DNA of 64,000 bases from Eledone cirrhosa (Eukaryota), in assembly GCA_964016885.1 (NCBI GenBank), contig OZ024751.1, positions 5,890,001 through 5,954,000 on the forward strand, written 5' to 3'. Of this stretch, positions 829-61,764 are shown piece after piece (position 1 is the stretch's first letter; every line of letters starts with the position of its first letter). Both the position numbers and the translations under genes were made by a program. Below the pieces are notes generated by a model. The model did no database searches. It was not told where the DNA came from and was given only the letters and a program-made list of their open reading frames with translations.

Positions 829-1089
829 GTGAGGTTTTTTTTACAAAATGAAAAATATCCGAGGTGTCCTACACGAGTGAAAGTATAAAGAAAAAGAGAT
901 GAAATCGAAAATGCAACTGGAGTCTTATTTTTTTTTTTTTTAAATATATATATTTATTTGGTTCCTTTACCGGTTTCGCAGTTCTTCTGCTTTTCAAAAG
1001 AACTGCGAAACCAGTAAAGGAACCAAATAAATATATATATTTAAAAAAAAAAAAAGACTCCAGTTGCATTTTCGATTTCATCTCTTTTT

Positions 1090-1808: not shown

Positions 1809-2158
1809 GTGAAGTTTTTTTTACAAAATAAAAAATAACAGAGGTGTCCTACTCGAGTGAAAGTATAAAGAAAAAAAGATGAAATCGAAAATGCAACTGG
1901 AGTCTTATTTAAAAAAAATATATATATATTTATTTGGTTCCTTTACAGGGTTTCGCAGTTCTTCTGCTTTTCAAAAGTAGAGTTGAGATGGAGGGTCTGT
2001 GGTTTTTCTCACATCCGTGAGAAAAACCACAGAACCTCCATCTCAACTCTACTTTTGAAAAGCAGAAGAACTGCGAAACCCTGTAAAGGAACCAAATAAA
2101 TATATATATATTTTTTTTAAATAAGACTCCAGTTGCATTTTCGATTTCATCTTTTTTT

Positions 2159-3529: not shown

Positions 3530-3727
3530 TATAGGAAAATGTTTGACCCTGATCGCAGAGCTCACGCCGTTTCGACGGCTATTTCTGAGTCCAGAAATAG
3601 CCGTCGAAACAGCCTGAGCTCTGCCATCGGGGTCAAATATTTTCCTATTACCCACTCTACTACCCTAAGTATTGAGTACTCCGGTGCCTAATGGTCCATC
3701 TGGTTCCTTACCACACCTCCTCGTTAT
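3530..3727. mobile_element. Family B short fold-back pLTR fragment
   Basis: Inverted arms around ~3590 match the 3' end of the 4488-6802 element. TA-rich flanks. Confidence 0.75.
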
Positions 3728-3764: not shown

Positions 3765-4055
3765 AAAGGTAAACAGAAATAACAACACAATCGATACAGT
3801 ATATGGAAGGTATATATATATTAGGTTAACGCTTGATATAGCAGGAAGAGCGTCTTAACGTTTCGGACGCTAGTCCTTTCTCAGAAGAAAGAATGAGAAA
3901 TAAAATAGATTGAGGGGACGGGTGGGATTGAATTGGAAAAAATGTCTTTAGATAAAAATAACAGGTCCATTCATGTTGACATCCCTTGCAAAACTGTGGG
4001 CAATGGCGCGCGTCTACCTGAAATGGAAAAAAAAACAGTTTTGTGAAAAGAGCTA
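3765..4055 (-). mobile_element. Family F pLTR-like repeat with HHR (3853-3888, G8A)
   Basis: Homologous to 38440-38690. Minus reads TCTT-CTGAGAA-A-GGAC tagc GTCC-GAAA-CG-TT-AAGA. Confidence 0.7.
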
Positions 4056-4084: not shown

Positions 4085-4366
4085 TGTTATACTTTGGGAG
4101 GGTCTTGCTACAAATAGAAACACACGCACCTGTCGGCTTTCACTTCAATTTATTATAAATTTCCGGTTGGTTGGTTGGATAACCGGACAGTTGTTTATGC
4201 ATTGTAAAAGATCGTTCGTCATTCTGTCACCTCTTCAATCACTGGGTTTTTATTTTGTATCTCCTTTGTTCTGTCCCACATCATCTTGTATGACAAAAGT
4301 ATAAAAATATCGGTTTCAACACTCGTTTTCACATAAGAAATTTTGCAAAACAAATTCAAACACGAA

Positions 4367-4447: not shown

Positions 4448-4503
4448 TATAAATATATAATTATACACACACACATATATATATACATATAGGAGAAAGT
4501 ATG

Positions 4504-4600
4504 ACCCCGACGGTAGAGCTCAAACCGTTTCGGCGGCCATTTCTGGACTAAAGTAAGAGCTTTTAGTCTGGTAAATAAATAACCGAACTTTTCAAGGGGT
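4504..4600 (-). ncRNA. Type-I hammerhead, U3-A8 variant, intact core (family B)
   Basis: ACCCC-TTGAAAA-G[long stem II]C-GAAA-CGGT ttgagctct ACCG-TC-GGGGT: 5-bp stem I, 5-bp stem III, GUC site. Confidence 0.8.
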
Positions 4601-5120
4601 ACTTCCTTATATGGGAAGATTGTATTTTTCAAGGAGATTCGTCTAAATTTGTAGCAGACACAGAAAAGTCTATCATGGAAGTGGGTGTGGGTGGGGGTGG
4701 CTGAACTTGCCTGTAGAACGATAGGGGAGTGGGTAGAGCCGGTCAAGCGTTGAAGGTGAATGTATACGGCAAATTCTAAGGAATGTGTATGAAAGTAGGC
4801 CAGAGGAGGTTGACGATAAAAGGTTTCTTGAGAAATGGAGGAGGGACGTTATAGAATTGCTAAACCAAATGGGATTAGGAGACAATGAAACAAATATAAT
4901 AAAATAGAATATAATAAAAAATGAGAGGAGCCTAAAGAAGATTTTCCCGATAAGTGTTGTCACCTCGGCATTGTGTGGGGAGGATTGACCACGTTACGTG
5001 GCGTGAGCGGCGGCAACGCCTGCTGGTTACGCTAAGGGATGCTGGAAAAAAGGATATTTCCTCCCGGAAGCCACTCCGCTTGAGGGCATGTTTGTACTGA
5101 GGCGGATGTTCGTTGAATAT

Positions 5121-5822
5121 ACCGCCGCTCACGCCACGTAACGTGGTTCAATCCTCCCCACAATGCCGAGGTGGCAACACTTATCGGGCAAATCTTCTTT
5201 AGGCTCCTCGACAAACACTTCCCACTACAACACCGCTACCACAACATAATCAACAAAAACACTGTCAAGCTATCCTACAGCACCACACCTAACTTCGCAC
5301 AGAACAACGTCTTCTCAAACACCAAAAAACTCAACCTCTATGGAAGAACAACCTAGAAATTAGTGGAGAGCCGACCAGGAGGTGTAACTGCCCTGATAGA
5401 TCTACATGCCCCTCAACAACAGATGCCGAGAACGTAACATGATCTACCAGTGCAACGTGAGGACGGACACCTCCAACAAAGCTTATATAGGATTAAGCGC
5501 TTGTGACTTTAAGACCCGGCTCTACCAACACTGACATACGTTCCGAAACCCGGTCCGGCGACATGCCACCACACTTTCGGGCCACATCTGGGACTTCCAA
5601 GATAATAATATAACTTACCATCTTACTTGGAGCTTACTGTCCAGAGCTAACTCCTACAGGGGAGGACGCCATCCGTGTAACGTATGCTCGGAGGAAACAT
5701 TACAAATGCTGTTTACGAAGGATCAACTCCTAAACCAAAAAGACGAACTAGTAACTGCATGCAAACTCAGATTGCAGAAGACTTACCTCGCTCTCAAACC
5801 CCCTAACGATCCGGGTGGGTAG
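5121..5822 (+). pseudogene. Naiad-type linker and GIY-YIG endonuclease remnant
   Basis: VTWFNPP..IGQIFFRLLDKHFP..TVKLSYS, CNC..CP..C, IYQC..AYIG..FKTRLYQH, LSGHIW, CNVCSEE, LNQKDELVTACK..PPNDPGG*. Contains frameshifts and stops. Confidence 0.85.
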
Positions 5823-6611: not shown

Positions 6612-6708
6612 ACCCCTTGAAAAGTTCGGTTATTTATTTACCAGACTAAAATCACTTACTTTAGTCCAGAAATAGCCGTCAAAACGGGTTGAGCTCTGCC
6701 GTCGGGGT
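6612..6708 (+). ncRNA. Family B hammerhead, G12A mutated
   Basis: Same fold as 4504-4600 but AAAA replaces GAAA. Confidence 0.65.
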
Positions 6709-6814
6709 CATACTTTCTCCTATCACCCACTCTACTACTATAAGTATTGAGTACTCTGGTGCGTTAAGGTCCATCTGGTTCCTTACCACAACACCTTTGT
6801 TATATATATATATA

Positions 6815-6933
6815 TAACGAAGGAAATGTGGTAAGAAACCAGGTGGACCATAACGCACCAAAGTACTCAATACTTAGGGTAGTATTAGCCGTCGAAACGG
6901 CTTGAGCTCAGCCGTCGGGGTCTTACTTGTTCC

Positions 6934-6935
<2 letters not shown>
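6815..6935. mobile_element. Family B short inverted fragment
   Basis: Minus-strand pLTR tail joined to the plus-strand 3' half of the HHR, with TA flanks. Confidence 0.65.
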
Positions 6936-6992
<57 letters not shown>

Positions 6993-7565: not shown

Positions 7566-8976
7566 ATAATTTTATTAATACAATGACAGACAGTATCACA
7601 AATTCCATCTATCATTAATGATTTTATGTCTATAATTCAATTTACTTTCTTTGCATCTCATATATCAGAGATAGCCCTATATTGTTACACTGACATTATC
7701 TTTTTTCAATATTAACTTTCTGTTTTGTCTCCGAAAAAGAAATATTTGGATAGCAAAATTCGGTTATCCTTTCAGCACGTCGGAACGTATCAAAGATACC
7801 GGAAGTACACTGAAATATAGTATAATGACATATTGTGGCTGATTTCTATCGTAAATAACTCAATAAAATATAAATATTTGGTAAAAAGGAACAATGGCAT
7901 TGATGAGAAGACATCGTAGTTTTAGGAAATTCAAATGAAAGATCGTTATTCAATATTCCCCATTTCTATTTCTGAGTCATCAAATTGATAGTCTTCGTTG
8001 AAATAAATGCTACAGATTATTCAGAAAGCCTGCTTAGAAAACGAATAGATAACGAATGCCATACATCCAAATATAAAGCAGTTTCTTTGTTCACATTAAA
8101 CATTTTGAATTTTATAAATGCTTCCCTTCAAATTTAATATATAAATTTTAAACTATATGACGATTGAGAGGAGATATTGAAAACTGTACTAAATATCTAA
8201 TCACGTTGTGTAGTTCATTCTGATATCGATTATTCAATTGCTCTGATATTTCTGGGTAGTAACATCATTTCATTGAATGCAATATTTTCATTCTCTTCTT
8301 TGGTGACAGTGGCATATGGCGCTAGAATTTGGTAGGGTCCTAATTTAATAAAGAAAAAGCGTCATATATATTTTATGGACACGAATAGAGAAAAACGGAT
8401 GAAGTGATAATAAAGCTTCATAGCGAAATGGATAAAGAAGTTTATATTGTCTAAATATTTGATAGGGATACTTATTTGCTATGTTGATAATATCCTATAT
8501 ATGTCGGTCATATTACATATTCTTTGGCTAGAATGGACAATACATAACCACCATGCCACCGAATGATATGAAGAGTATATCAAGAATCAACAACGGACGA
8601 ATATAAATGGACGGATAACTCCGTTCAGATAGCATTTATTCAGCTTCAGCGTCGAAATATAGATAGATTACTGCAAAGGTAGAGAAGTGTCTACATGTAG
8701 ATGTATTACATCTATTTAAATAGAAATGTTAACTGTATATTTTGCTATATATTTTGTCCTACAGGTAAATGTTGGGTTATTAAGCATTCATATTTCCCAG
8801 TAAAAGGCCACACGTGAAATTTCTCCGGAAAGTAATATTCTCTTGTTTGAACTACGAAATGAAATACATAAAACTATCTCCTTTATCATTTCAAATCCTT
8901 TATATCATATCTCAGCATAATAAAATATTCAAAACTATAACAATAATAGTAATGATAATCTTCTTCTTCTTCTTCT

Positions 8977-10452
8977 GACATGCGCCATTTCCGACAGATC
9001 CATCCACGACAACCTCCACCTCATGCGATACATCGTAGAGAATGTAGCTAGGGAACCTGGCACGGGTGGGTCCTTGATCAATTTAGATCAGTCGAAAGCT
9101 CTCGATAGGGTCGACCATCGTTACCTAGCGGCAGTCCTGAGGGCGGCTGGCTTTGGGCCCATCTTCAGAGGCTGGATCGCTGCCATGCACAGCGACATCT
9201 GCTCTGTGGTGAGAGTGAACGGTCACCTTTCGGAACCCTTCAACATCATGCGCTCGGTCCCCCAAGGATGTCCCCTCTCGTCCCTCTTGTACGTATTGAC
9301 TCTCGAGCCATTACTGCACAAACTGGAGACGTTGAGGGGGGTCCGCGCGAACTAAGATGCGGAAGATCCGTGTCAGCATATGCGGACGATGTCACCGTTG
9401 TGGTGTCGTACGCCAAACACATCGAGGCGATCGGCACTACACTAAGAAAATACGAAGCGGTGACAGGAGCAATGATCAACCAGGAAAAGTCAGTGGGCCT
9501 GCAGCTCGGCACCTGGAGAGGCAGGTCCATGCCGTCCAACAGCGTCGTCGGGCGCTGGACAGATGGACCAGTTAAATTGCTCGGGGTCTATAGAGGATTA
9601 GTGGAGGGGAAGAGCGACGACGTACTTGGGGAAACTCTAGGCGTCGACGAAAATCAACTAGCCAATCTCTTCGGAAGAACTTTCGGGCCGGGGCCTATGG
9701 ACAACTTCCAGAAATCCCTGGCCTGGCAGTGCTACCGAGGAGCTTTGCCAGTTCGGGATAAAGTCTACAGGCATGGAGGTGCCGTCAGCCGGGCATGTCC
9801 GAGATGTGCGCAGGGCGACGAAACCGTCCTGCACGCACTCGTCCAGTGTCCGAGCATTGCTGACTTGTGGGTTTATGTCGAACACCTGCTGTCGCGTGTA
9901 GGACGGATCCAGCTATCAGCTGAGTCCATCTTCCTTTACCCGGGAAGGGAAGGCAATTTTTATCTGTCTGGTGGCCATGGCGAAAGAGATAGTATGGTGG
10001 ACATGTTTGAAAAGGTTGAAGACGACCACTTACATCTTCGGTGATGCCCTGATTAACTTTTTCAAATTTCATTTGAAAAGGAAAATCAGGGTAGAAAAGG
10101 AAGTGCTCTCTTCCCAGCATTTTGTTGAAAGATGGGTGAGAGAAGCAAGAATGGCCCGAGTGAATGGGCCTAATCTGAGTATGTGTCTGTAAATTAAAGG
10201 TGGAAAACTGGGAGAGGGCACTTGCCCTGGTGGTCAGGGTCACTGTGGATTTTTAATGGGCTTTCTCTACCAATGTCCCTCGGAAGTCTCCCCCCTATTG
10301 GGGAATTTTTTCATTGTTCTATTATTACATCCTCTGTTTCTTTTTTTAACACGCAGAAATGCCCATTTCGTACCGCCCTGTATTCTCCTGTACTGTCCTT
10401 AATGTAAACCCTTGTGGTTAATAAAGAAATCATTATTATTATTATTATTATT
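8977..10452 (+). mobile_element. 5'-truncated, internally deleted Tx1-like LINE copy
   Basis: Highly similar to 14426-16460 but lacks ~15040-15573 and ~20 bp near 15915. Ends AATAAAGAAATC(ATT)n. Confidence 0.95.
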
Positions 10453-10670
10453 GAATGCTATGGTTGACGGAGGCTCGGCTCTGTAAGGTATTGTAAATTT
10501 TGAACACTATAACAATTGTAAATTGTTTAAAACTTTAACGAACTTGTAGACAAAAACACCCTCCTCCTCGTGAGAGGGGTCTTTCTGCCCGTTATTTGGC
10601 CCTTCGGGGTTGAATAACTGCTTATTGGGGTTTTGTACCCAATATTTATTTTAAACAAAAAAAAAACAAC

Positions 10671-12741
10671 ATGGCTACGAAAAAGAAATTTCATAGGTCA
10701 CTCCCACTCATTCCGTCTTCTTCTTCCTCAATCATCACTACAGCAGAGAGAAGATTGTCTCTCTCCCTCCCTTCTCTTTCGCAAGCGACGAAAGAAAAGA
10801 AAAGTCTCGTGCAAAGCGTGCAAGATTTCTCCACGACGACGACGACAGCGACGAAACAGGTGTGCGGGAAATACGAAAACCCAGTTCATTCGTCTGACGT
10901 CAGGAATAATAGCAGTAGCAGCCGTAATAACAACAGCAACAGTGACAATGAAAACAACAGTAGCAGCCGCAACAGCATCACCAGCAGCATAAACAACAAC
11001 AGCATTAGCAGCAGCAACACCAACAACAACCACAGCAACAGCGGCGGAGGCAGTAGTCGTAGTACCTGCAGCAACAACAAAAGTACCAGCAGCTCTGACG
11101 ACAACAACAACAGCAGAGAAAAACCAATCTCATTTGCAGGTATTGCGAAAAATTTGGAAACAATCCTCATAACAAATGAGGAATTAGAGGAAGCGAAGAA
11201 GATGGTGACAAAGAACGGACACCGAGCAATCTGCAAGGCAGCGAAAAATTTTTTCGAAACCCAAGAGCACTGTACGGTCACGTACCGTACAGTAAGTACA
11301 AAATCCCGTAGGGTGGAAAGAGCCACAGAGGCCCAAATACAAAAAGCCTTTGGGGTCTGTGTGGCAGAGGAAAACGCACATCACCCGAGGCAAAAAATAC
11401 GCCACCGTAGACGTACTTTTTGCCACACCCCAGGAGGCAAAGGCCCAATCAGTAGTGACCCTAAGGAGCGAGGAAATGGTGTTGGTGCACTCCTACTGCG
11501 GGCAAAAAATTGTGAGGGTCAAACTGACCCACGTCCCCCCCGGAATGACCCCTTCTTGGCTGGCCGCGTCTGTCCTCGTCGGAATCGAGGACAAAACAAC
11601 TGTACTGCAAGTACAGAAAAAAGTAAGAGAAGATTGGGTCGGCTCCTCCATTGAGATGCTAATCCAAACCAACCAGGAGTGCATCGAAGCTATCCCGGAT
11701 GTGATAGACTTCGATAACGGCACTCAACTGCCCATAAGTGTTGAGGGCAAACGCCCGAAATGCTTTCGCTGTGGATCGAAGACTCACCTCAGGGCCTTCT
11801 GCAACGAGAAGACCCTGAGAAAGGAGAAAACCCCCCTCCTTCCGAATCCGGCTCCACGGCTACCAGCAACAGGACAAGCGGCAACCAGGAACGATAGGTC
11901 CGTGGCACCCATACCCACTCCACGGAAATCAAAGACAGCAGCAGCAGTGGAAATATTAACAACAACAACAGCAATACCAAATGCAGCTGCAACAGAGACT
12001 CCAGTGCAAACATCACCAACAACAACAAGTGAAAGAGTGGAGCTGGTACCCCTCCCCGTGCTTACAGAATCAGACATGGAGTGTGAGGTGGGAGAGGGAT
12101 GGCAAACGGTCGCAAGAAGGCACAAACGCAGAAGCAGCGCATCGTCGCCTTTGAAAAGGGAGGAAAGAAATAAGAAAAGGGTAAAGTCTACTGCAAAGAG
12201 ACCCACAGCAGCAACACCACCAACACCATCACCACCCACACCAGCACCACCATCACCACCGGCGACAACCCCACCGCCAACAACACCTTCAACACCACCA
12301 CCACAAGCACCAACATCGCAAAAACAACAACAAAACACACACACCCAGCAACAACGACAAGAAAATAGCAGAACCACACCCCACCCCCAGAAAAACAAAT
12401 GCACGGCAATAAACACACACAACAAGAAACTAATGACTTACATAATTGAACACACAGACATTTCACAACAGGACTACATAATACCAGCACCAATCAAAAC
12501 GCCAACTAACATAAGACTGCTAAAAATAGCACAGAAACAATACACAAACACTAAAACGAAATTCCCCAACGCAGTTGGTGATTTCAGGGACCTAGGAGGA
12601 ACCATCAATCGAAGAGTATATTCAGACATTCTCTTAGAAGAGCCGACGACCAGCCGAAGGGACGATTCAACGGTCCCTTCACCAGACGATCAAGTGAAAA
12701 GGGATGTAAAAACCATCCCTCCTCTACCAAAAGTACGGTAA
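10671..12741 (+). pseudogene. Tx1 ORF1 (nucleic-acid chaperone with zinc knuckle), one frameshift near 11352
   Basis: N/S-rich N-terminus (10671 frame) joins the 11350 frame at TTTGGGGTCT. CX2CX4HX4C knuckle CFRCGSKTHLRAFC and P/T-rich tail. Confidence 0.85.
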
Positions 12742-12776
12742 GTGGTCTTTCCCATCTTTTCCACTCTATTTTAAAC

Positions 12777-15700
12777 ATGACCTCACTCAGAATAGGCAGC
12801 ATAAATGCGCGTGGCTTGGGGTCGTCATGGAAGCAGGGTCACCTGCTCAACGACCTCAGGTCACTAAACATAGATGTAGTGGCCATCAGCGAGACCAGAA
12901 TCTCCGAAGCACGGGCCTTCGCACCGATCTTCGGCGGCTACGATGTGTACGCATCTCCCAGCCGTCCTGGATCGGGTGGAGGAGTTGCTGTGCTTTTTCG
13001 GAGAGGTTTGGATCTCGCCATACGGGCCATCTTCCTGGACCCAGAGGGTAAGCTGGTGGTGCTGGACGTGACCAGCGGAGACGGGCAAGCTTTCAGGCTA
13101 GTGGCCGTCTATGCCCCGACAGGAGCAGGGCGGCCTGATTTCTTCCGGCGTCTGGAGACCTTTCTTGGAACGTCCCGCTCTTTAGTGTTAGTGGGCGACT
13201 GGAACGGGATCTTAGATGCACGCTGGGACTGTGTGGGATTAGCGGATAGGGGTGGAGGGTGCAAGAGCCTCACCAACCTGCTCAGGCGTTTTGAACTGTC
13301 TGACAGGTAGCGATTGGATTTCCCGAATGTGCCAATGTGGACTTGGACAAACCGCATAGGGTCATCCAGATCATATCTAGATAGAGTATTTTGTAGGGAA
13401 ATAGATAGGTCTAGCATAGGCTGTCCACAATTCAAGATAGTCAGCTACACGGACCACAAATTCGTGACCTGTGTGCTTGACTTAGATAGGCTTCATAGAC
13501 GAGGACCCGGCTACTGGAAGCTAAACGCGTCCTTACCAGCGCGCAAGGCCTACAGAGACCGGATTAGCGAACTAGTTAAGCGGGCGTTGACGGGGGCCAT
13601 CGTCAACAACAAGTGGTGGTTTGCTCTGAAAAGAGCGATTAGAATAGAATCGATTAGGTTTAGTAAGGCTTTAGCAATAGAGAAAAATAGAGCAGAGGGA
13701 GAACTAGTTAGAAAATTAGACGAGGCGCTTAGCAAAGGCATTGCGACCGACGTGCTTGCGGCGAAATTGGCCCTTGACCAATTCTTCAATGCAAAGCACG
13801 AAGGCTGCGTTGTCAGAGCAAGGGTGCGTGCTCTCAGACACGAGGGGACGAAAGCCGTTCAATGGGCCCGAGTGGCGGAGGCGCGTCGTGGCAACAAAGC
13901 CACGATCCGGTCTTTGGTGGACCACGACGGGCGCATGCTACTCGATCCCGGGCAAATGTGTGAAGCTTTTCAGCGACACTTCGCTCAGCTGTTCGGGGGC
14001 AGCGGTGGGCCGGGTAGAGGAATGGACTTTAGTGTCTACCTCGACGGACTGCCGCGGCTCTCGGCCACTGAGGCGAAGTGTTGCGAAAAGCCGATAACTG
14101 CCGCTGAAGTAAGGGAGGCAATGACTGGCTGCACAAGGGGTAAATCGCCTGGTTTGGATGGTCTGCCCTATGAACTTTACGTACAGATGCCAGACTTGTT
14201 CGGAGGCCTCTTGGCGGACGTCTACTGCAACTGGCAACAGAACGGGAGAATTCCAAGTTCTGTGAGCCGAGGAGCGGTGGCACTGCTGAGAAAGGATCCG
14301 AACAAGGGGGATAACATAGAAAATTTCCGGCCCATAACTCTGCTAAACACAGAGTTTAAGATTTTGGCCAAGGTGCTAGCAAAGAGGTTGGCGCTTGTCG
14401 TTGGTGGTCTGGTGGGAGAGGCGCAGACATGCGCCATTCCCGACAGATCCATCCACGACAACCTCCACCTCATGCGATACATCGTAGAGAGGGTAGCTAG
14501 GGAACCTGGCACGGGTGGGTCCTTGATCAATTTAGATCAGTCGAAAGCTTTCGATGGGGTCGACCATCGTTACCTAGCGGCAGTCCTGAGGGCGGCTGGC
14601 TTTGGGCCCGTCTTCAGAGGCTGGATCGCTGCCATGCACAGCGACATCTGCTCTGTGGTGAGAGTGAACGGTCACCTGTCGGAACCGTTCAACATCATGC
14701 GCTCGGTCCGCCAAGGATGTCCCCTCTCGTCCCTCTTGTACGTATTGACTCTCGAGCCATTACTGCACAAACTGGAGACGTTGAGGGGGGTCCCGCGCGA
14801 ACTAGGATGCGGAAGATCCGTATCAGCATATGCGGACGATGTCACCGTAGTGGTGTCGAACGCCAAACACATCGAGGCGATCGGCACTACACTAAGAGAA
14901 TACGAAGCGGTGACAGGAGCAATGATCAACCAGGAAAAGTCAGTGGGCCTGCAGCTCGGCACCTGGAGAGGCAGGTCCATGCCGTCCAACAGCGTCGTCG
15001 GACGCTGGACGGACGGACCGGTTAAATTGCTAGGGGTCTGGTTCGGTCCGGACCTCCAGACGGACAAAAACTGGGACGAGGTGACGAGCAGGGTGGCTTC
15101 TCTCACCCAGAAATGGGCCGAGAGGAAGCTATCCCTGAAAGGTCGAGCGGAGGTGGCTAACGCGTACATCGCGTCCGTCATCTGCTACCGCCTGACCGTC
15201 GTACCTTGTCCTAAGCCTCGCCTGACTGTGCTGGAGCGTTTGCTCTTTCGCTTTTTGTGGAAGGGACGCGCTCCGATGGTCAGGCGGTCCATCTGTTGTC
15301 AACACCCGCTACGTGGAGGGCTGGGCATGCCGTGGCTGATGATGCGCAGGCACGCGCTCAGGCTACGACATGTCCACCTCTTCCTCGACGGTGATCAGGT
15401 GTGGTCGCCGTTTGCTAGACGCGTGTTTCCCCAGCTCGTTTCCTTGACGGAGCTGCAGTCCTGGGTCAAGCGAAGACCGAGAGGGAGCGCCTGGAGACTG
15501 GAATGTCTTCAGGCGCTCACAGCCCTCGACCAATCGGGCAATGTGATCGGTGGAAACTCCACCTCGGCGTTCTATAGAGGATTAGTGGAGGGGAAGAGCG
15601 ACGACGTACTTGGGGAAACTCTAGGCGTCGACGAAAATCAACTAGCCAATCTCTTCGGAAGAACTTTCGGGCCAGGGCCTATGGACAACTTCCAGAAATC

Positions 15701-16196
15701 TCTGGCCTGGCAGTGCTACCGAGGAGCCTTGCCAGTTCGGGACAAACTCTACAGGCATGGAGGTGCCGTCAGCCGGGCATGTCCGAGATGCGCGCAGGGC
15801 GACGAAACCGTCCTGCACGCACTCGTCCAGTGTCCGAAAATTGCTGACTTGTGGGTTTATGTCGAACACCTGCTGTCGCGTTTAGGACGGATCCAGCTAT
15901 CATCTGAGTCCATCGTGAGGATTGCCCCGCCCTCCTCCTTTAGCCGGGAAGGGCAGGCAGTTTTTATCTGTCTGGTGGCCATGGCGAAAGAGATAGTATG
16001 GTGGACACGTTTGAAAGGGCTGAAGACGAGCACTTACCTCTTCGGTGATGCTCTGATTGACTTTTTCAAATTTCATTTGAAAAGGAAAATCAGAGTAGAG
16101 AGGGAAATGCTCTCTTCTCAGCATTTTGTTGAAAGATGGGTGAGAGAAGCAAGAATGGCCCGAGTGAATGGGCCGACTCTGAGTATATATCTGTAA
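12777..16196 (+). pseudogene. Tx1 ORF2 (APE endonuclease, RT, zinc finger), single in-frame TAG at 13308-13310
   Basis: NARGL, SET, GDWN, YLDRV, TDH; KSPGLDG, FRPITLLN, QGCPLS, YADD; CPRC..ETVLHALVQC. Confidence 0.93.
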
Positions 16197-18519: not shown

Positions 18520-20723
18520 AATAAACCTTTCAAGGATTTACACAAATCCAGCCTCCTGTCATTTCATTATAATATTTAACTCCGTAATAGCACCACCAAC
18601 TACAAAAACAAAGACGGTTGAACTGCTTTACGTTGAGTACTCTCTATATTATTACATTACGATTGACCATACGGAATAGACCAGCTCTATACAGTGGTGA
18701 ACCACAAACCTGAATAAATAATGCTCCTGAGATGTCGAACACTTCCAAATGTAATAATGAACAGCGGCATGGGACTGAATATATCTAACCACCATTCGGA
18801 CTGTGGCTACTCGGTGTTTTCGCATACCGCCAACCTGGCCCATAGCTACTTCCCTCTCAGAATATTCGGACCTCGACGAAACTCTACGGATTATACCATC
18901 ACATGTATTGTACTGCACTGTATCAACTGAATTCGCTACCCTATACTTCTGGGCATGTCTAACTCACACTGAATTCCCAGATTCGAACACACAGTGACTC
19001 CATTTCCACATCTATATGCATTATCTGACTGTAACTTGAACTATATTGTATTTCTCCTGTGTCCTGAACTATCCATTTACCCGACTCTTGTTTGTTTATT
19101 TATATCTTTATATCTTTATTTGCTGTATTAATGCTTTTCCACATATTCTACCTCTATACATCCATGTACTTTTTACTTCCCTTATTCGGACTTTTACTCG
19201 CGTGTACCCTTAGCACACGACACTAGTGTGTCTCCCCCTGGGAACATTAATACTGCAACATGAACTATATTGTACTTCTACTATGTCTTGTTTTCTCCAT
19301 CTTACTCCAACACCACTCTTGTTGGTTTATTTACATATTTATATCTATATATTGATATATTTATATATTTATACCTTTGCTTTATCAATGTGCTCTTCCA
19401 CGTATTCCACTTCTATGTATCCATGTATTTCCACTCCTCCTATTGGGACTTTTGCTCACTTGTCCCCATTAGCACACGACACTAGAATGTCTCCCCCTGA
19501 GAACAAAAATAAATATTACCCGACTATATCCCGTACTGTACATCCCACTAAGACAAATTATAGATCTACATAATACAATTAACGTCTCTTCATAAAAGAC
19601 TCTCTTTAATTAAACCCCGCAACCCAAAACCTTATAAAAGTTTTTTTTATAGGTTTGATTTTCAATTTTCTGTTTGTTCAGTTCTTAATCCCCTTAATCT
19701 TTAATTTTATAATGTTATTCTGAATTCCTTCAACTTCATCCTATAAATTTAAACAATATTTTAAAGTTCCAACTTTCTGTCGGGCTGTTGGGTGGGTTTT
19801 AATGGCGGCGCCCCCTGAGGCAAGGGCCTACCTTGAGTGCTTGGAAAAATAAATTTCCCCTTCTTTCGGTAAATGAAAATACTCAGAGTGGCTTAATTCG
19901 TCTCGGAGTGCGGCCGGTTTTTAACCGCCACATAGTACCTTTAAATTACAGATCAAATCAGAACTATTAGATATATCAACCTTAAAATGTTAAACTGTTT
20001 AAATTTAAATTTTCTAATTTCTTTGATATTAATTATTAATTATTAATTTTTAACTTCATCCTATAAGTCTAAACAAAAACGTAACGTTCCAATATTCTGC
20101 TCACACATTATAACACACTGACCCCCACTATATTCACCTCTGCTAAGATACGGGTCCCTGTGAACATTTTCTCGCGCCACTCCTGGCCTGACTATAGTCT
20201 GACATTAATATCGACCTTTCTTCCTCTTTCTTTCTATCTTCCTTCTTGTAGCCATCAACCTTTATACTTCTACTTCTTCCTTTTCTTCCTTCTTTTCTCC
20301 CCTCTTTCTGTCTTCCTTCCCCCTTTTTGTTCGCCTATATCTGACCGGTAGTAGTGGTTTAGATACGGGTCCCGTGTAAAAAAAAAAACTTATTCGCGAC
20401 AATCCTGGCCTGACTGTAATACCGACCTTTCCTCCTCTTACTTTCTGTCTTTCTTCTTATAGCTGACATTAACCCTGGCTTCTCCTCTTCTTCCTTCCCC
20501 ATTTTTCTCTCTCCTTCCTTTCTTTCTTTCTTTTGTCTTGTAACTTATGTTCCCACCCCTTTCTGTTTTCCTTTATCTGACCGGTAGTAGCACACTGTGA
20601 GCCTTAGCCACGTCACTCGAGGACGACCGGCTAAGATAGAGGGTGCAAGATAGCGGTCGCCCTCGGGTCCTCGATGTTCAGCCCCATGAATTTTATCTAT
20701 TACATTCACGTATTATATTTCGA

Positions 20724-20781
20724 ATACCTGATGATATCACCGTATTTATACGGAACCCGGTTATTGAAATGATCATAGTAT
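20724..20781 (+). ncRNA. Type-I hammerhead ribozyme (second copy)
   Basis: Same core as 18462-18519, 2262 nt downstream. Confidence 0.85.
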
Positions 20782-20970
20782 AATAAACTTTTCAAGGATT
20801 TACACAAATCCAGCCTCCTGTCATTTCATTATAATATTATATATATATATATATATATTTAATACAGTTTTACAATAGATTAGAAGCACTCCAAAGTTAT
20901 GGTTTTCCGGAGTTATTAATATTAATTTAAAATATTAACAAATATAGACATTCTTGTGATCGAGTATATG

Positions 20971-21029
20971 TTATTATACATATTTCAGAGGTACTGAGCT
21001 ATTTACAACAGTACGTCCTCATCAGATAA
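20971..21029 (-). ncRNA. Type-I hammerhead within pLTR-like fragment 20860-21119
   Basis: TTAT-CTGATGA-GGAcGTACTG...CAGTACcTCT-GAAA-T ATGT A-TA-ATAA. Adjacent 30-bp inverted repeat at 21047-21118. Confidence 0.75.
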
Positions 21030-21119
21030 AATAAGATGATGCTTGACATACCTTGACTATGTTGATGGTTAAAATTTGAAATATCCTGAATTTTAACCAT
21101 CAACATAGTCAAGGTATGG

Positions 21120-21436
21120 CGCGAAATTTATTATAATTATTGACCAACCAATCAAATTACTTCTCGAAAAACTTGGCATTTCGAGCCACTTTTTCCATAT
21201 AAAACAAGTAACATTCAGAGACCAACCAGATGTGAGAAAAACCACAGACCCTCCATCTCAACTCTACTTTTGAAAAGCAGAAGAACTGCGAAACCGGTAA
21301 AGGAACCAAATAAATATATATTTAAAAAAAAAAAATAAGACTCCAGTTGCATTTTTCGATTTCATCTTTTTTACTTTATACTTTCACTCGTGTAGGACAC
21401 CTCGGTTATTTTTCATTTTGTAAAAAAAAACCTCAC

Positions 21437-29248: not shown

Positions 29249-30290
29249 TAACGAAGGAGTTGTGGTAAGGAACCAGATGGACCATAACGCACCAGAGTAC
29301 TCAATACTTAGGCTAGTAGAGTGGGTAATAGGAAAATGTATGACCCAGACGGCAGAGCTCAAGCCGTTTTGACGGCTATTTCTGGACTAAATTAGAATTT
29401 TTAGCCTGGTAAATAAATAGCCGAACTTTTCAAGGGTACTTCCTTATATGGGAAGATTGTAGTTGTCAACATTTCTTGTAAACTCAATTAGATCTATCAT
29501 GGCAGTGGGTGGCAGGTGTTGGTGACCTGTAGAGCAATGAGGGAGTGGGCGGAGCCGGTCAAGCGTTGAAAGTGAAATCTATACCCAAAATTCTAAGGAT
29601 TGTGTATGCAAGTAGGCCAGAGGAAGTAGGCGACAAAGGGTTCTGGAGAAAATAGAGGAGGGACCTTATAGAATTGCTAAATCAAATGAGATTTGGAGAC
29701 AATAAAAAAAAATAAGAGAAAGATATATAAAAATATAAAATTGGATAGTAAGAAGTGATAAAAATAAAACCTGTTGAGTCTAAAACAGCTGCTATATTTA
29801 GTTGGTGTTGCTTTTTCTGCCAATGCTATAGAATAGGTTAATAAGTTGAGAATAGAAGATTCTAAATAAGAATTTTTAAAATAATAGAATTGGGTAGCAA
29901 AAAGTAATACAAAATCTCTGGGGTCTAACACAGCTGCCATCATTCGTTAGTATTGCGTTTTCAGCCAGTGCTATCTATAATTCACTGGGGTGAGGGTACT
30001 GAGGGTACAGAGGCCCAATGGACTGCCTCGGGGTGGGCGAAAGGGGAAAAAGAAAAGGAAAAAGATCGGGAGTGGAAGGAAGTGATAGGAGGAGATAAAG
30101 AGAAGAAGAAAACAGACAGGAAAAGAAGAGGTACATCTACCTATATAAGCTGGGGTTTCTCCTACTTTATTCGGCAAGTGGGATGTTTTAGCCATTGTCT
30201 ACCCACCCGGGTCGTTAGGGGGTTTGAGGGTGAGGTAGGTCATACGCAAAGGGTGTTTGCATGCAGTTACCAGTTTGACTTTTTTGTTCC
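29249..30290 (-). mobile_element. Family B Naiad 3' end/pLTR with HHR 29343-29437 (G12A)
   Basis: Reverse homology to 5730-6802, including LVTACK..KPPNDPGG*. Confidence 0.85.
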
Positions 30291-31938: not shown

Positions 31939-34900
31939 TCTATATATATAAAACAGAAGATGTCTGTCTGTTTGTGTAACCGCATGCATTTCTACATTTT
32001 ACAACCGATTTGCACCAAATTTCATACATAGGTTTCTGAAGTCCTATTACGCGTCGTCGGCTATTTTATTTTTCGGTACATCTACTCTGGGGACCCTCAG
32101 GGACAGGTAGCCGCCTTAAGCCTCTCCCTTCGACTTATCTATTGAAGTTCACATTAACACTGTATTAGTACCTGATAACTTTTTAAGTTTACGTTCGATC
32201 TTCGTTTTCACTTTCAAAACAACAATCATCTTCGGATGAAATTTCAGAAATGTAAACATCTGATTCATTTGAAGATAAATCACTAATATTATCTTTTGTT
32301 TCTTGTTCATTTTGAATGTCGTCGTGTGTAAAAACTTGAAAGTCGGTATCGCTACTTTCATAAGCAATGTTGATACAAACAAAAAATCTATTCTACTTTC
32401 AACGTTAAAAAAACACGTGTTGTTTTAAGTTGTTTCACTATATTAAGTGTTAATTGTCGCGGTAAGGGCCTAATCTCTCAGTAACCTCGAATTGACGAGA
32501 TTTTGATGACGGTATTGTTTATTTTTAGAACGATATTTAAGTGTGGGTGTTACGGCGGTTTTGGGCGGTTTGAACAAATAAAGGGGAAATAATTCCGGCC
32601 GGTTTGAACAAATAAAGGGGAAATAATTCCGGCCGGTTTGAACACTAAAGGGTTAAAGGAGGTTTAGTTAATGTGTTTATGGTTCCAGTTTATCATGCTG
32701 TGATTTTTCGGCCATTTTTGCCTGTATCCTTTCAATGGTTAGTACTTACTTTGCGTTGCCCCTAACTTAAAACCTGAAATTTGACTGGTACACAATATCT
32801 TGCAAAATATATCCACTTTCTCAGACCACATAGATTTATCATATTTTTTCACAATTTATATCCGTGTTTTATTGCTTACTTAAACGTTTATTGTTCACTA
32901 TTTATCGTTCTCCCTGGTTAATTTTCTAGAAACAATGCGCCCCAAGAAAAGAACTCTCATTGTTCGATTATCTAATGATGCAAGTAGGTCAAAGCGAAGG
33001 CGTAAATGCAACTGCGATCAGGCTCTCACTGAATGCTGTGCAGACGGCAGCTGCAAGAGCGGAGGAGGATGACAGTCGGCGTGAACTTCGACGGAACAAA
33101 AGTGCTGCCGCGACTGCTGCTGCTCGCGCACGAGAGGATGAAGGATGACGTGCCGTTCGACGTAGCAGGGATGCCGCTGCAACATTTGCTGCTCGCGCAT
33201 GAGAGGATGAAGGACGACGCGCCATTCGACGAAGCAGGAACGCCACTGCCACTGCTTCTGCACGAAATACTGAAACCATAGAGCAACGACGTGGCCGTCT
33301 TCTGCAAAGTGAACAGCGGTGATCATCGTTACATGGCATTTCTAGGACTTGCAATTCACGATGGTTGTTGAAGGCCTTTAACTACGACCCCTCCTCGGAC
33401 TACGTCGTCCATGCAGATATTCAAATTGGGGAAATGACCTCTACTTGCTAGTTTTGTCGTACGAAAAAGTGGCCAGGGGAGAGAGATGGAATGTGTTGTT
33501 CAAACGATAAAGTTAGACTACCTCCTATTCGCGACTCTCCAGAGACATTGCAACTCCTTTTGACAGACACGACGAGGGAATCATCGAGGTTTCTGCGTAA
33601 TATCCGCCGCTACAATTCCGCGTTTCAGATGACATCTTTCGGAACGTGGGTTCATGCCAACTTTCAAGGTCCAGGGGCAGATTTACCACTTGATTGGATG
33701 TATGCAGCCTATAGAAAGGATCCTCAATTTCTTCAGTCATACTTCGTTGGAAACTATCAGGAGCAGGCAGAGATGCGAAATTCTATTTGGTCCGAAACTA
33801 ACATTGGAACCAGAATAAAACTTCAAGAAATGCTCACGAGAAAAACAGCTATGTTCGCAGTTTCAAGTACGCTTTGGAAACAGCTACCGACCAAAACTTT
33901 AGTGTGGTCATACATGCTGACCGAAGGCCATCTGGAGAACACGCTGGTCGGTTCAACGCACCAACATGTAATGAGATTGCTGCGGTTATTTGTGGTGAAC
34001 AGCACAACAAGAGAGATATCATTCTAAAGCACCGAGACAGCACATTACAGCGTATGAGACACACAGGTCCTACAATGCACTCCAGTATCCATTGCTATTT
34101 ATCAACGGCGAGGACGGATACCATTTCGGCATTCCTCAACATTCGGCAGGCAATGGTGAGGCACATCTTAGGAAAACTTTCACCTGCATGGATTTTGTAT
34201 GCTTTGCGATTTATGGTAAGGGACAATTCATTCAACCACCTACACCGTTCTCGTGACCTTTTCCAACAATTTGCTGTTCATATGGCCGTTAAAATGGAGT
34301 CCGAGAGATTATGGTTCATTAAATTAAATAAAAAGAAACTTCGATCTGAATGCTACATTCATCTATGCGATGGAATTAACAACGACTTATCCCCAGACAA
34401 TTTAGGGCAAGTGTGTATTTTGCCTTCAGCGTTCACAGGGGGACCCCGATACATGCACCTGAGGACTCAGGACGCCATAACCTACGTACGATATTATGGG
34501 CGCCCCGACATTTTCATAACGTTTACATGCAATCCCAAGTGGAGGGAGATTACAAATGAACTGTTCCACGGTCAAGCGCCAAGACACAGGCACGATCTCA
34601 TAGCAAGAGTGTTTCGCCTGAAATTATCCAGATTAATGGATTTATTAAAGAAAGGACAGGTTTTTGGGTCTGTCAGGTGCAACATGTACACGGTTGAATG
34701 GGAGAAACGAGGGCTGCCGCATGCCCATATCTTGATTTGGTTGGTTACAAAAATCAGTTCAAACTACATCAACAAATTCATTTCTGCCGAACTAACTGAT
34801 CTGTCGATTGACAAGGACCTCTTCTCTATAGTCACATCAAACTGAGTCCATGGTCCTCGTGGACATGGACTCAATATGAAGTCCCCGTGCATACACGACG

Positions 34901-37230
34901 GAAAGTGTACAAAACGATATCCCAGGCCGTTTTTACAGGAAACACAGACTGGCGGTGACGTATATCTGTTGTATAGGCGCAGGAGACCTGAAGACAGTGG
35001 GTTCACAGCAAAAAGTTGGTGAACGTGAAATCGGCAACAGCTGGATAGTGCCATATTGCCCCCTCCTTTTGAAAGCGTTCAACGCCAATATAAACGTCGA
35101 ATTTTGTAACTCAGTAAAACCAATTAAATACGTTTGTAAGTACGTAAACAAGAGATAGGATGCTGCCGTATTTGGTCTTCGTCATGAAAACAGTAGAGAC
35201 GAGGTATCTGACTACCAAGCAGGCCGATACATTAGCAGCAATGAAGCCTTTTGGCGCGTTTTCAGCTTCCCACTGCACCAACGACACCCCGTCTTTAAAC
35301 AACTTGCCGTTCACCTTGAAAACGGTCAACGGGTGTATTTCAATGATGCAACAGCTGCTCAGCTAGCGATCTCACCAAAGGAAACTACGCTCACCTCTTT
35401 TTTCAAACTTTGTCAACACGACGACTTCGTTCGAACTCTGCTGTATTCTGAGATACCGTCTTACTATACATGAAACAGGATAAAATGGCTACGAAGGAAG
35501 GTAGGGCAAGAGGTGTTTGGACATCCAGGCATCAAATTCGACAATTGCCTTGGGCGAGTTTATACGGTCCACCCTACCCAACACGAATGCTTCTACCTGC
35601 GACTTCTACTTCATGAGGTAAGAGGGCCGACTAGCTTCACTCATCTGAGAACCGTCGATCGATACGCCTGCGCAACGTACAGGGAAGCCTGCTTGAGGCG
35701 TGGACTTTTAGAAGATGACGCACAATGGGATGCAACCTTGACGGAAGCTGCCATCTTACATTTCTCCCGTAGTCTAAGAGCACTTTTTGCTATCCTCTTG
35801 CACGTCTGTGAATTGCGCGATCCTTACTCTTTATGGCAAAAGTTTAAAGATGATTTCGCAGACGAATATAGGCGTCTCGCTCAATTGCAATCTCAAAACT
35901 TAGATTTCAGACGCTATATATATAATAGAGCTCTGATCGATATTGAAGACAGACTGGCTTCAATGGGTGGAGATGTCTTGGAGAAATATGGGCTTCCGCA
36001 AAGACTTCGAGATGAGCCATCTGACATTCCCAACGTCATTATACGTGAAACGTCATATGATGTCGACGAGCTCAAAAGGTATGTTGAAGAGAATGAACCA
36101 AAACTTCTAATGGATCAAAAACAAGCCTACAACATTGTCGTTGATTCCATCTGTAATCGGGGAGGGCGTATATTCTTCCTGGACGCACCTGGAGACACGG
36201 GAAAAACATTTGTAATCACTCTTTTACTCGCTGCAGTGAGGCAACACGGAAACATCGCATTGGCCGTGGCTTCTTCCGGCATAGCAGCAAATTTGCTGCC
36301 TGGTGACAGGACGGCCCATTCTTCAGTATTTCTCTCAACGTGGCATCATCTCAGACACCCACATGCAAAATCAGCAAGTCTTCCGGAAAAGCGCTGGTGT
36401 TAAAGCGCTGCCTACTAATTGTTTGGGACGAATGCACAATGGCCCACAGGGCGGCTTTTGAGGCATTACACCGGTCACTCAAAGACATCAGAGACTGTTA
36501 AGAACGAATGGGAGGTGTCATGTTCCTGTTATCTGGGGACTTCCGACATACTCTGCCTGTAATCCCAAAAGGTACGCGGGCTGATGAGGTTGGTGCATGC
36601 CTTAAGGCCTCCCCCTTTGCCATTATGTAAGAAAGCTGACGCTTACAAAAAACATATGAGCACAACTGCAAGGTGATGAGACATCAGCGGGTTTTGCTGC
36701 TGCCATTCTGTTGTTGGGAGATGGCAAAGTCCCACTCGACGGAGATGGTACAGCCGACCTCACAGGGATTTGCAGATGCGTTAAGTCAATTGCTAAGTTA
36801 CGGACGTCTGTTTTTCCTAATCTTAAGGAGAACTACACAAATAAAGAGTGGTTGTGTGAACGCGTAATATTGGCTTCGAAAAACCACATAGTTGGAGGCA
36901 CCAATGAACAGCTCCTGCTGTGCTTGCCTAGAAACTTGCATGTCTTCAAGTCCCTTCACACTATGGCTGATCCGGAGGAAGTTGTTAATTACCCCACAGA
37001 ATTTCTTAACTCCCTAGACTCTCCCGGATTGCCACCACACTTACTGCGACTTAAGAAAGGTGCCCCTGTCATGCTCCTCAGAAATTTGGAACCCCGAAGG
37101 CTTTCCAACGGCACGCGTCTGGTCCTCCAAAAGGCGATGCCTCATGTTATTGAGGAAATAATACTTACAGGATGTGGTAAGGGGGATACTGTCTTCATAC
37201 CAAGGATACCTCTCATTCCATCCGGTAAAG
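31939..37230 (+). mobile_element. Decayed autonomous Helitron, 3'-truncated
   Basis: 5' TCTATATATATAAAACAGAAGATGTCTGTCTG terminus, 34-bp tandem repeat ~32567-32643, and RepHel coding remnants. Confidence 0.9.
32935..37225 (+). pseudogene. Helitron RepHel (HUH Rep plus PIF1-like helicase)
   Basis: GRPDIFITFTCNPKW, VEWEKRGLPHAHIL, IKYVCKYVNK; LDAPGDTGKTF, VWDECTM, SGDFR, PVMLLRNL..LSNGTRL, FIPRIPL. Many frameshifts and stops; last helicase motifs absent. Confidence 0.92.
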
Positions 37231-37232
37231 AC

Positions 37233-37511
37233 AAGTTCCTTATATTAAAAAATTCATCATTTTACGATCGTTTCTGCTATGTGTATGTGTGTTGGTATGT
37301 ATATCATATAGATCTATGTAAAAATATTACGAATTATCAGAGGAAATATACATACCTTCACATATATACGCGGCATCTATATGTGAAGGTATGTATATTT
37401 CCTCTGATAATTTGTACTATTTTTACATAGATATATATGATATACATACCAACACACATATACATCCCAGAAACGATCGTAAAATGATGAATTTTTTAAT
37501 ATAAGGAACTT
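37233..37511. repeat. ~135-bp-arm fold-back abutting the truncated Helitron
   Basis: Near-perfect inverted repeat centred ~37371 containing GAAACGATCGTA. Confidence 0.85.
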
Positions 37512-40772: not shown

Positions 40773-41149
40773 CGCGTGTATACATAATATATATATAAAT
40801 ACACACATAAATACGTAAATAACGCGCGCACACACATACCTACATGTAAATACACATATGTACGCGGACTACGTCAACCAAAACACAAAGTACACATATA
40901 CACACACCCTACATACGTACGAATCCGCATACTCACGCAGACGCAAACACACGTATACACATAACATAATGCACATGTACCAGTATATATAATATATACG
41001 CCATAACATATACAAGCAAGTATACGTACCTTCACAAAACATACAAGTAATGTATGCTTACCTATACGAATAAGTAATGGTATAAACATAAAATATATTT
41101 AGCTACCACATCAAGACGTAAATTATCCGCGTATTGTTCGTACTATCCG

Positions 41150-51111: not shown

Positions 51112-52295
51112 GTGAGTTTTTTTTACAAAATAAAAAATAACCGGTGTCCTACACGAGTGAAAGTATAAAGTAAAAAAGATGAAATCGAAAATGCAACGTG
51201 AGTCTTATTGTTAAAAATATATATATATTTATTTGGTTCCTTTACCGATTTCGCAGTTCTTCTGCTTTTCAAAAGTAGAGTTGAGATGGGGGGTTTGTGG
51301 TTTTTCTCACATCTGGTTGGTCTCTGAATGTTACTTGTCTCATATGGAAAAAAGTGGCTCGAAATGCCAGGTTTTTAGAGAAGTAATTTGATTGGTTGGT
51401 CAATAATTATAATAAATTTCGCGCCAGTTCGCGTTACAAAGTTTTTCAAACAAAGGGGGGAGGGGAGGGGGACACAGGTTGTCTTTTCATATATGAGTTT
51501 TTGAATTTTTTTTAATTGAATTACTTTTCACCAAGGCTTTTTTAATAATAAACGTAATTTGATTGGTTATAAATGAAATTATGGCTGTCACGTGAACAAG
51601 TTTTCATTCAATTTTCGCGCCCTTATTTGGAAATCTATTCTGTAGCATTTTTAGAGAATTTTATGACAAGCAAAAGATAATGGTCAAGAGAAATTGGATG
51701 GGAGAATTGTTCTGGTTCAGTGAATATGGTTAGTTCGCTGGGGTGTATGTATATTTATTTGTGTGCTTGTATGTGTGTGTGTGTGTGTGTATGTGTGTGT
51801 GTGTGTGTTTGAATTTATTTTTACTTAAAAAAAGGGGCTCACGAAGGCTTTTTTTAAATAAACGTAATTTGATGGGTTATAAATGAAATTATGGCTGTCA
51901 CGTGAATAAGTTTTCATTAAATTTTCGCGCCCTTATTTGGAAATCTATTAATAGATTTCCAAATAAGGGCGAGAAATTTATTATAATTATTGACCAACCA
52001 ATCAAATTACTTCGCTAAAATCCTGGCGTTTCGAGCCACTTTTTTCCATATAAAACAAGTAACATTCAGAGACCAACCAGATGTGAGAAAAACCACAGAC
52101 CCTCCATCTCAACTCTACTTTTGAAAAGCAAAAGAACCGCGAAACCGGTAAAGGAACCAAATAAATATATATTTAAAAAAAAAAAATAAGACTCCAGTTG
52201 CATTTTCGATTTCATCTTTTTTTCTTTATACTTTCACTCGTGTAGGACACCTCGGGTATTTTTCATTTTGTAATAAAAAAAACTCACTGTCTAAT
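51104..52295. mobile_element. Largest family A fold-back element (HHRs 51240-51275 -, 52118-52153 +)
   Basis: Arms 51104-51425 / 51969-52295, internal ~110-bp direct repeat, palindrome 51929-51970, (TA)n flanks. Confidence 0.85.
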
Positions 52296-55070: not shown

Positions 55071-58409
<3,339 letters not shown>

Positions 58410-58513: not shown

Positions 58514-58955
<442 letters not shown>

Positions 58956-58971
58956 ATATATATATATATAC

Positions 58972-59074
<103 letters not shown>

Positions 59075-61328: not shown

Positions 61329-61386
61329 ACACCTGAAGATGTCACCGGATTCTTAGGCAACCTGACCACTGTAATGTGCATAGTGT
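61329..61386 (+). ncRNA. Degenerate hammerhead upstream of the PLE ORF
   Basis: ACAC-CTGAAGA-T-GTCACCGGATTC...T-GTAA-T GTGC A-TA-GTGT (A13 mutated). Homologous to the 18462 HHR. Confidence 0.65.
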
Positions 61387-61764
61387 TTGCAGAAATAAAT
61401 AATCAAGTAAATTCAACATATTTGACCTCCTGTCATTTTAATATATATATAGCCCCATATTTACACACACACCCCACACACACACGCACACACGCACGCA
61501 AACACACACACGCTTACACCTCCACTTATTCTCTCTCACACACACACATACACACACAAAGACCAGTTCTAACACGAGATAAAATCTATCCTCCACATTT
61601 ACGTATAGACATATCTTCTCGAAAATTAAGGACATTTAAATAAATCTAAGGTAAAAGACTAATTGTCAACAATATCTTTTGCATTTGCATTCTTTATTCT
61701 ATGTCCATACCTGCATTGTTTTGGCTTTATTATACATATACAAACGTTTATACCTCATTACACA

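Follow-up and report, generated by a model that had tools for sequence, protein, structure and literature searches.

Type I hammerhead motifs with U3–A8 cores at the 3′ ends of two putative Penelope-like element lineages in Eledone cirrhosa

In the hammerhead ribozyme, position 3 pairs with position 8, a contact known from structures, from mutagenesis, and from natural examples described earlier. The 2′-OH of nucleotide 8 is proposed to act as the general acid and G12 as the general base (PMC6155905), so that a Watson–Crick swap of the 3–8 pair could be expected to keep catalysis. Natural hammerheads in which U3–A8 stands in for C3–G8 are in print, and the initial annotation of the DNA analyzed here was right to call U3–A8 a known compensatory variant. 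The text of Perreault et al. 2011 gives several examples, cited there as earlier shown to be active in vitro (PMC3088659), and Cervera and De la Peña 2014 describe “U3-A8 instead of C3-G8” in the Cercyon elements of S. mansoni, with ~1,300 matches (PMC4209133). Of the 56 representatives in Figure S3 of the latter paper, two are U3–A8 (one of them UUGAAAA) and one is U3–G8; the S. japonicum representative given there reads CUGAAGA. The Poseidon PAc hammerhead of Anolis likewise belongs to a Penelope-like element (PLE) and has a natural C3–G8 core, unlike the motifs described below. Single changes at its position 3 or 8 abolish cleavage, and the C3G/G8C swap partly restores it (PMC11167929). As described in the same paper, this Poseidon-type hammerhead needs protein to cut, and cleavage is dispensable for insertion in vitro.

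In the 64,000-nucleotide stretch of Eledone cirrhosa DNA analyzed here (the window), each of the 11 sites for which the initial annotation had reported TTGAAAA instead of CTGANGA does carry this sequence, at positions 3–9 within a type I hammerhead frame. Accordingly, UUGAAAA provides a Watson–Crick 3–8 pair in each of the 11, in its U3–A8 rather than its CUGANGA form. We regard it as likely, judging from sequence, that these motifs are type I U3–A8 hammerheads at the 3′ ends of two putative PLE lineages and that, in the master elements, they cut their own RNA, with U–A predicted to take the place of C–G.

The motifs of family A follow a compact plan that comprises a helix I of 3 bp and a helix II of 4 bp (often 3 bp only), together with GAAA, the palindrome CCGG, and a site reading UA. 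The copy at 965..1000 (minus strand, U3 at 997) is a minimal type I motif with a U3–A8 core, with the two helix I arms as its ends; its helix I is CUU/AAG, its helix III is the palindromic ACCGGU, and the predicted cut lies between 968 and 967. The copy at 21267..21302 (plus strand, U3 at 21270), which served as the reference for read alignment, is intact, with a predicted cut between 21299 and 21300. The motifs at 1941..1977 (minus strand, U3 at 1974) and 2052..2088 (plus strand, U3 at 2055) are the left and right arms of a shared fold-back insertion, and the helix III palindrome is broken in both. The copy at 51240..51275 (minus strand, U3 at 51272) is intact, with a U–G wobble in helix III, and is likely the left arm of an inverted insertion whose other arm, at 52118..52153 (plus strand, U3 at 52121), keeps two of the four helix II pairs. 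The two P motifs, termed “Neptune pLTR” by the initial annotation, share the family A plan and the U3–A8 core, and GCAA replaces GAAA (A13C) in both. One, at 55233..55269 (minus strand, U3 at 55266), lies in the inverted upstream arm of a putative Neptune/Nematis-type element; the other, at 58250..58286 (plus strand, U3 at 58253), lies in the 3′ repeat, sense to the ORF, and is a homologue of family A. Across the eight A and P copies, the ACCGGU palindrome expected of a dimer design is present in five, a wobble variant in one, and a broken form in two.

Family B has a more elaborate architecture, with a helix I of 5 bp, a lone G10.1–C11.1 pair, a branched helix II of 57 nt, and a normal 5-bp helix III, not the palindromic dimer design of A and P. 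The type I motif at 4504..4600 (minus strand, U3 at 4595) is the left inverted arm of its insertion and retains an intact U3–A8 core. In the other two full copies, the core reads AAAA (G12A), each with one more stem mismatch: in helix III at 6612..6708 (plus strand, U3 at 6617), which is sense to an ORF remnant, and at the first helix I pair at 29343..29437 (minus strand, U3 at 29433), which belongs to a second insertion. The G12A change would fit CpG decay; partial B copies at 3588-3640 and 6886-6936 keep GAAA.

All core bases and stems are kept in four of the 11 copies only (U3 at 997, 21270, 51272, and 4595). The intact stems described by the initial annotation, together with an otherwise intact core, therefore hold for these four only; the other seven have stem or core defects. 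G12, A13, A14, A15.1, U16.1, and H17 are all present in seven copies, with A13C in the two P copies and G12A in two of B. The G12-A13-A14-A15.1 set is thus incomplete in P, and because both P arms carry A13C, the P template was already off-core. Three helices surround the core with helix I open, and at least one intact copy of this arrangement is found in A and in B. The dispersed, 5′-truncated, and folded-back copies in the window appear to be mostly dead and decaying.

Similar to the Cercyon hammerheads, the motifs described here are of type I with a short helix I, a palindromic helix III (in A and P), a U3–A8 pair, and a location in PLE repeats, and they occur mostly as dispersed truncated copies, also as opposite-strand pairs (PMC4209133). 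They differ from the Cercyon form in that A9 is directly followed by G10.1 in family A, that its helix II is 3–4 bp long, that a 4-nt palindrome lies between A15.1 and U16.1, and that the neighboring ORFs are Neptune/Nematis-like and Hydra-like, not Cercyon. The additional base that separates position 9 from position 10.1, a feature of PLE minimal hammerheads, is absent in A, P, and B alike; it is not universal, because the Marsupenaeus representative of Figure S3 lacks it (PMC4209133). Family B resembles the Hydra-clade PLE hammerheads of Craig et al. 2021 in lying 3′ on the sense strand within a (TA)n context, in having a stable helix III, and in the CxCX5C linker of its ORF (PMC8557442). 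In File S2 of that source, all 26 Hydra rows (25 element names) have C3–G8 and a short unbranched helix II, in contrast to the U3–A8 core and the 57-nt branched helix II of B. The examples of Perreault et al. 2011 show the same compensatory covariation as the motifs here, and a tie to PLEs is not given in the text consulted (PMC3088659); unlike those examples, A and P lack a stable helix III.

The P motif at 58250..58286 lies 3′ of a 5′-truncated PLE ORF at 56325..57125 (plus strand), which encodes a CxxxxCxxC linker, reading CDRPNCGIC, and a GIY-YIG endonuclease that passes the Pfam cut-off (PF01541, E = 6e-07). A C-terminal GIY-YIG domain and a CX2-5CxxC linker are features of the Neptune clade, and P is probably of Neptune/Nematis type; the RT core is absent from this copy, and “Neptune” is the label given by the initial annotation. 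Upstream of family B lies a broken PLE ORF remnant at 5100..5810 (plus strand), interrupted by stops and frameshifts, in which the CxCX5C linker and the CxxC motif of a Hydra-clade endonuclease region are found at ~5380-5700; the DKT and RWK motifs are absent from this broken remnant. A longer broken Hydra-like PLE at 41000-43100 (minus strand) contains a DKT motif and the CxCX5C linker, and its protein at 41.4-43.1 kb is 50–54% identical to the B remnant. No hammerhead was found in the 550 bases after it. The B motif is located 3′ of the ORF remnant in two insertions, and both P and B motifs are sense to their ORFs. No ORF accompanies family A within the window, and its assignment to PLEs comes through its homology to P, so that a location in the PLE repeat, sense to the ORF, is given by position for P and B and by homology for A. 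Both lineages thus appear to be Penelope-like, with most or all motifs probably situated at the ends of PLEs.

Sequence comparisons reduce the number of lineages. A and P are 75.6% identical over 123 nt with the ribozyme included, 30 of 36 positions are identical within the ribozyme, and 74.4% identity remains over 82 nt upstream with the ribozyme excluded (E = 5e-09 pairwise, and 1e-06 when searched against the window). A global alignment of the parts downstream of the ribozyme is no better than shuffles (57% versus 57%), and the case for homology therefore comes from the motif and the sequence upstream of it. B shows no resemblance to either A or P (best blastn E = 0.067). Because A and P are homologous, the motifs represent two lineages, A/P and the Hydra-like B, not three independent families; the families described as unrelated in the initial annotation are so for A/P versus B but not for A versus the pLTR, which are homologous outside the ribozyme. 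Two origins of U3–A8 are likely, given that A/P and B share no similarity and adjoin different ORF types. With inverted arms counted as one event, the 11 motifs correspond to about seven insertions (four of A, one of P, two of B), of which 51272/52121 would be one, as suggested by its head-to-head layout. A CCAAT segment is common to A and P upstream of the ribozyme (21141-21155 and 57990-58120), with a tandem duplicate in P, and is a candidate pLTR promoter.

The window also contains five further families with C3–G8 copies, comprising 12 C3–G8 motifs (18466/20728/61333; 38555; 21025/54401/54533/58812/58856; 54880; 23841/25065), so that U3–A8 accounts for two of seven lineages. Blastn served to group four of these families, whereas the members of the fifth (3403/23841/25065) were put together by eye. 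Relatives with a single change are observed at 3884 and 3403 (C3–A8) and at 4238 (U3–G8). Two candidate families, 52485/49951 and 1714/43590, have weak or absent folds and were left out of the count. The presence of five C3–G8 families means that a U3–A8 core in every copy reflects inheritance from the master element, and since copies and fold-back arms inherit it in this way, “every copy” is not repeated evidence.

Family A was followed beyond the window by aligning reads to 21180-21370 with a similarity threshold of 80%, below which subfamilies are invisible, and with changes listed from 2% upward. In total, 1,935 raw RAD reads (X18), 2,909 contig pieces (X1), and 18 pieces with another organism label (X7) were placed; X1 may be the window's own sample, and RAD reads sample few loci. 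Coverage ended at 21300, which places the 3′ arm of helix I outside the read data. Among the changes listed (at least 2%), there is none at U3 (21270) or A8 (21275) in ~1,320 X18 core reads, 2,909 X1 pieces, and 18 X7 pieces; one further change with weak support falls outside this listing. Within the limits of read sampling, U3–A8 is the family A consensus beyond the window. The CTGANGA consensus that the initial annotation had named as the contrary outcome did not emerge for family A, with no C3 or G8 listed at 2% or more.

Other positions of family A are more variable. In the X18 reads, U4C is observed in 35/1,320, A13C in 27/1,202 (seven starts), G12A in 96/1,225, and C11.1U in 347/1,226, and position 10.4 is altered in 623/1,252 with no listed partner change. 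At the 11.1/12 CpG, C11.1U, which keeps a wobble pair, exceeds G12A by 46 versus 6 read starts and 73 versus 25 contigs; this excess may stem from one subfamily and hence from one event. The A13C change, seen in both P arms and in 27/1,202 family A raw reads, may also mark a subfamily. A literature search, with subscription papers and bioRxiv supplements outside its reach, found no paper on A13C. At 21265-21266, two changes co-occur, in ~32% of the depth of X1 and in the main contig of X7. Provided that the 3′ arm, outside coverage, is unchanged, the second of them (21266) would extend helix I by a fourth pair.

Conservation of the core and stems makes selection on the master lineage plausible. 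A and P agree at 22 of 23 positions in the core and the adjoining stems, against 71% identity upstream (binomial P ~0.003 at a 70% background, for positions picked after alignment). For the 12 core positions alone, 11 are shared (P 0.04 to 0.16), which is not clearly above the flanks, and within A a subfamily-level change is found at 0 of 12 core positions versus 10 of 109 places overall (P 0.29). One helix I pair is changed on both sides between A and P, from C–G to U–A, as one event. A covariation scan in which the helix I and 3–8 rows were used was not significant by shuffle control (25/500), the rows being related. Pair 4 of helix II also seems to change on both sides, but this was rejected as evidence, as there is an alignment gap there and family A reads often break the pair. 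The argument of the initial annotation that a double change in every copy implies selection thus fails as drawn from copies, and selection on the masters is plausible on other evidence (22/23 versus 71%).

In folding calculations, helix III of A/P forms between strands only. The family A monomer fold is at +4.0 kcal/mol and the palindrome duplex at −8.3 kcal/mol, and the cofold minimum, at −19.1 kcal/mol, is the A dimer in which helices II and III are formed. In the P cofold minimum (−17.9 kcal/mol), a competing hairpin replaces helix II. The hammerhead fold of B lies 1.0 to 3.5 kcal/mol above the minimum, is never the minimum-energy fold, and needs the lone closing pair. These energies are consistent with a model in which A/P would cut as a dimer only, two transcripts pairing through the ACCGGU palindrome, and B could fold as a monomer. 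U3–A8 would have arisen once per lineage by two transitions, probably via a U3–G8 wobble, and then been copied. The likely role would be the cutting of a tandem precursor RNA, a proposal of Cervera and De la Peña that is unproven in vivo. Not all copies are placed to do so. The plus strand at 900-1100 forms one long hairpin (−117 kcal/mol) with the 997 copy at the fold-back turn, and the minus strand of this fold-back also buries the core. Because of this position, and because 1974 and 2055 lie on arms complementary to each other, these three copies are predicted to lack a ribozyme fold when they are part of a read-through transcript. A TCAA upstream of the A and P cores (21258-21273 and 58241-58256) is complementary to U3-U4-G5-A6 and pairs with the core in the minimum-energy folds; this pairing is possibly due to chance or possibly an off-switch that would fit a U3 core only.

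Descriptor searches find the motifs above chance, although both descriptors were composed after the motifs had been seen. The strict descriptor, which left positions 3 and 8 unconstrained, gives six matches with a score of at least 9 (five U3–A8, one C3–A8), compared with 0.3 in total and 0.07 U3–A8 per shuffle in 40 block-wise dinucleotide shuffles. The tolerant descriptor (score of at least 8, 30 shuffles) gives 13 matches (five U3–A8, six C3–G8, two C3–A8) against ~1.1 per shuffle and a maximum of 3; six of the 12 C3–G8 motifs pass it. A match at 13816, within a LINE ORF, was set aside as chance. A literal CUGANGA pattern misses the U3–A8 motifs, as the initial annotation anticipated for standard searches. 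Rfam returns no hammerhead for the whole window among 150 of 199 matches listed, and none up to E = 10 in targeted searches of 20690-21320, 4480-4640, and 3820-3910; this miss is not due to U3–A8, because the C3–G8 copies 20728 and 21025 are missed too.

The reading of U3–A8 motifs as ribozymes active in the masters must be weighed against other explanations. The U3–A8 cores could be near-dead relics, produced by AT-biased drift in masters that had no need of cleavage and kept, if at all, as protein-binding or structural pLTR elements. The dispensability of cleavage for insertion in vitro in another PLE (PMC11167929) would agree with such a history, as would A13C in the P template and in 27/1,202 X18 reads, the single changes in decaying copies of other families (C3–A8 at 3884 and 3403, U3–G8 at 4238), the nonsignificant core-only conservation tests, and a window GC content of 37%. 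We nevertheless judge it unlikely, given that the double change restores a Watson–Crick pair in two unrelated lineages, that the motif shared by A and P is more conserved than the flank and helix I has one two-sided change, and that in vitro activity is reported for U3–A8 hammerheads (PMC3088659, with reference to Przybilski and Hammann 2007). For family B in particular, the structured 3′ end might be no hammerhead, and TTGAAAA might stand between its stems by chance. The lone G10.1–C11.1 pair, the masking of CGAA by an alternative pairing in copy 4595, the G12A change of two of three full copies, and the absence of an Rfam match could be read in this way. The exact type I order in which helix I, the core, GAAA, the helix III of 5 bp, and the UH site occur makes this improbable, as do the placement of the motif 3′ of and sense to a Hydra-like ORF, as in published Hydra elements (PMC8557442), the fit of G12A to CpG decay, and the partial copies that keep GAAA.

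Least credible is a scenario in which three or more unrelated families switched independently under strong convergent selection in this genome. It draws on the lack of similarity between A/P and B (best E = 0.067), on their different ORF types, and on the C3–G8 core of all 26 Hydra rows (File S2 of PMC8557442), which makes B look derived. It conflicts with A and P being one lineage and with the C3–G8 copies of five other families in the window, and two of seven U3–A8 lineages is unremarkable against the ~1,300 of ~3,300 minimal hammerheads given for S. mansoni (P 0.27; PMC4209133), albeit higher than the descriptor-biased 2/56 of Figure S3 in the same paper (P 0.02). A bolder reading, to which we give little credence, is that two deeply separated PLE clades in one genome converged on U3–A8 because the weaker 3–8 pair tunes cleavage down and so spares full-length RNA for reverse transcription; B would then be the first of the Hydra-like clade with a U3–A8 core and a branched helix II serving as a protein-controlled switch, and P a tolerated A13C variant.

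The U3–A8 core in PLE hammerheads is already published, and the window is less convergent than the initial annotation claimed. The new details are small: a Hydra-like element that combines a U3–A8 core with a long, branched helix II, and the A13C form. In the literature on octopus hammerhead ribozymes, the U3–A8 variant is undescribed among the matches listed by a search that excluded subscription papers and bioRxiv supplements. The natural swap confirms the 3–8 pair, which was already established, these elements included. The practical consequence is modest, namely that pattern searches should admit UUGANAA. If cleavage is tuned down by the swap, this would bear on what hammerheads do for Penelope-like elements, and family A, with its high copy number and subfamily variation, would be a usable test set for tuned cleavage.

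The window is unusually dense in hammerhead-like motifs, and several of the C3–G8 families have a long helix II. Repeat detection was swamped by microsatellites, and its inverted-repeat output alone was used. Short 5′-truncated 3′ ends are present as perfect fold-backs at 965-1000, 1941-2088, 3531-3640, 6733-6884, and 58706-58996, some of which turn inside or beside the ribozyme; the fold-backs yield spurious Rfam microRNA matches. A PLE-like RT ORF (Pfam RVT_1, DKG motif) is located at 61663-64000, with a C3–G8 motif upstream at 61333. Broken ORFs at 33452-37427 bear a possible resemblance to a Helitron Rep/helicase. By eye, two overlapping LINE copies are recognized at 8924-16193, with endonuclease and RT ORFs and an ORF1-like frame upstream.
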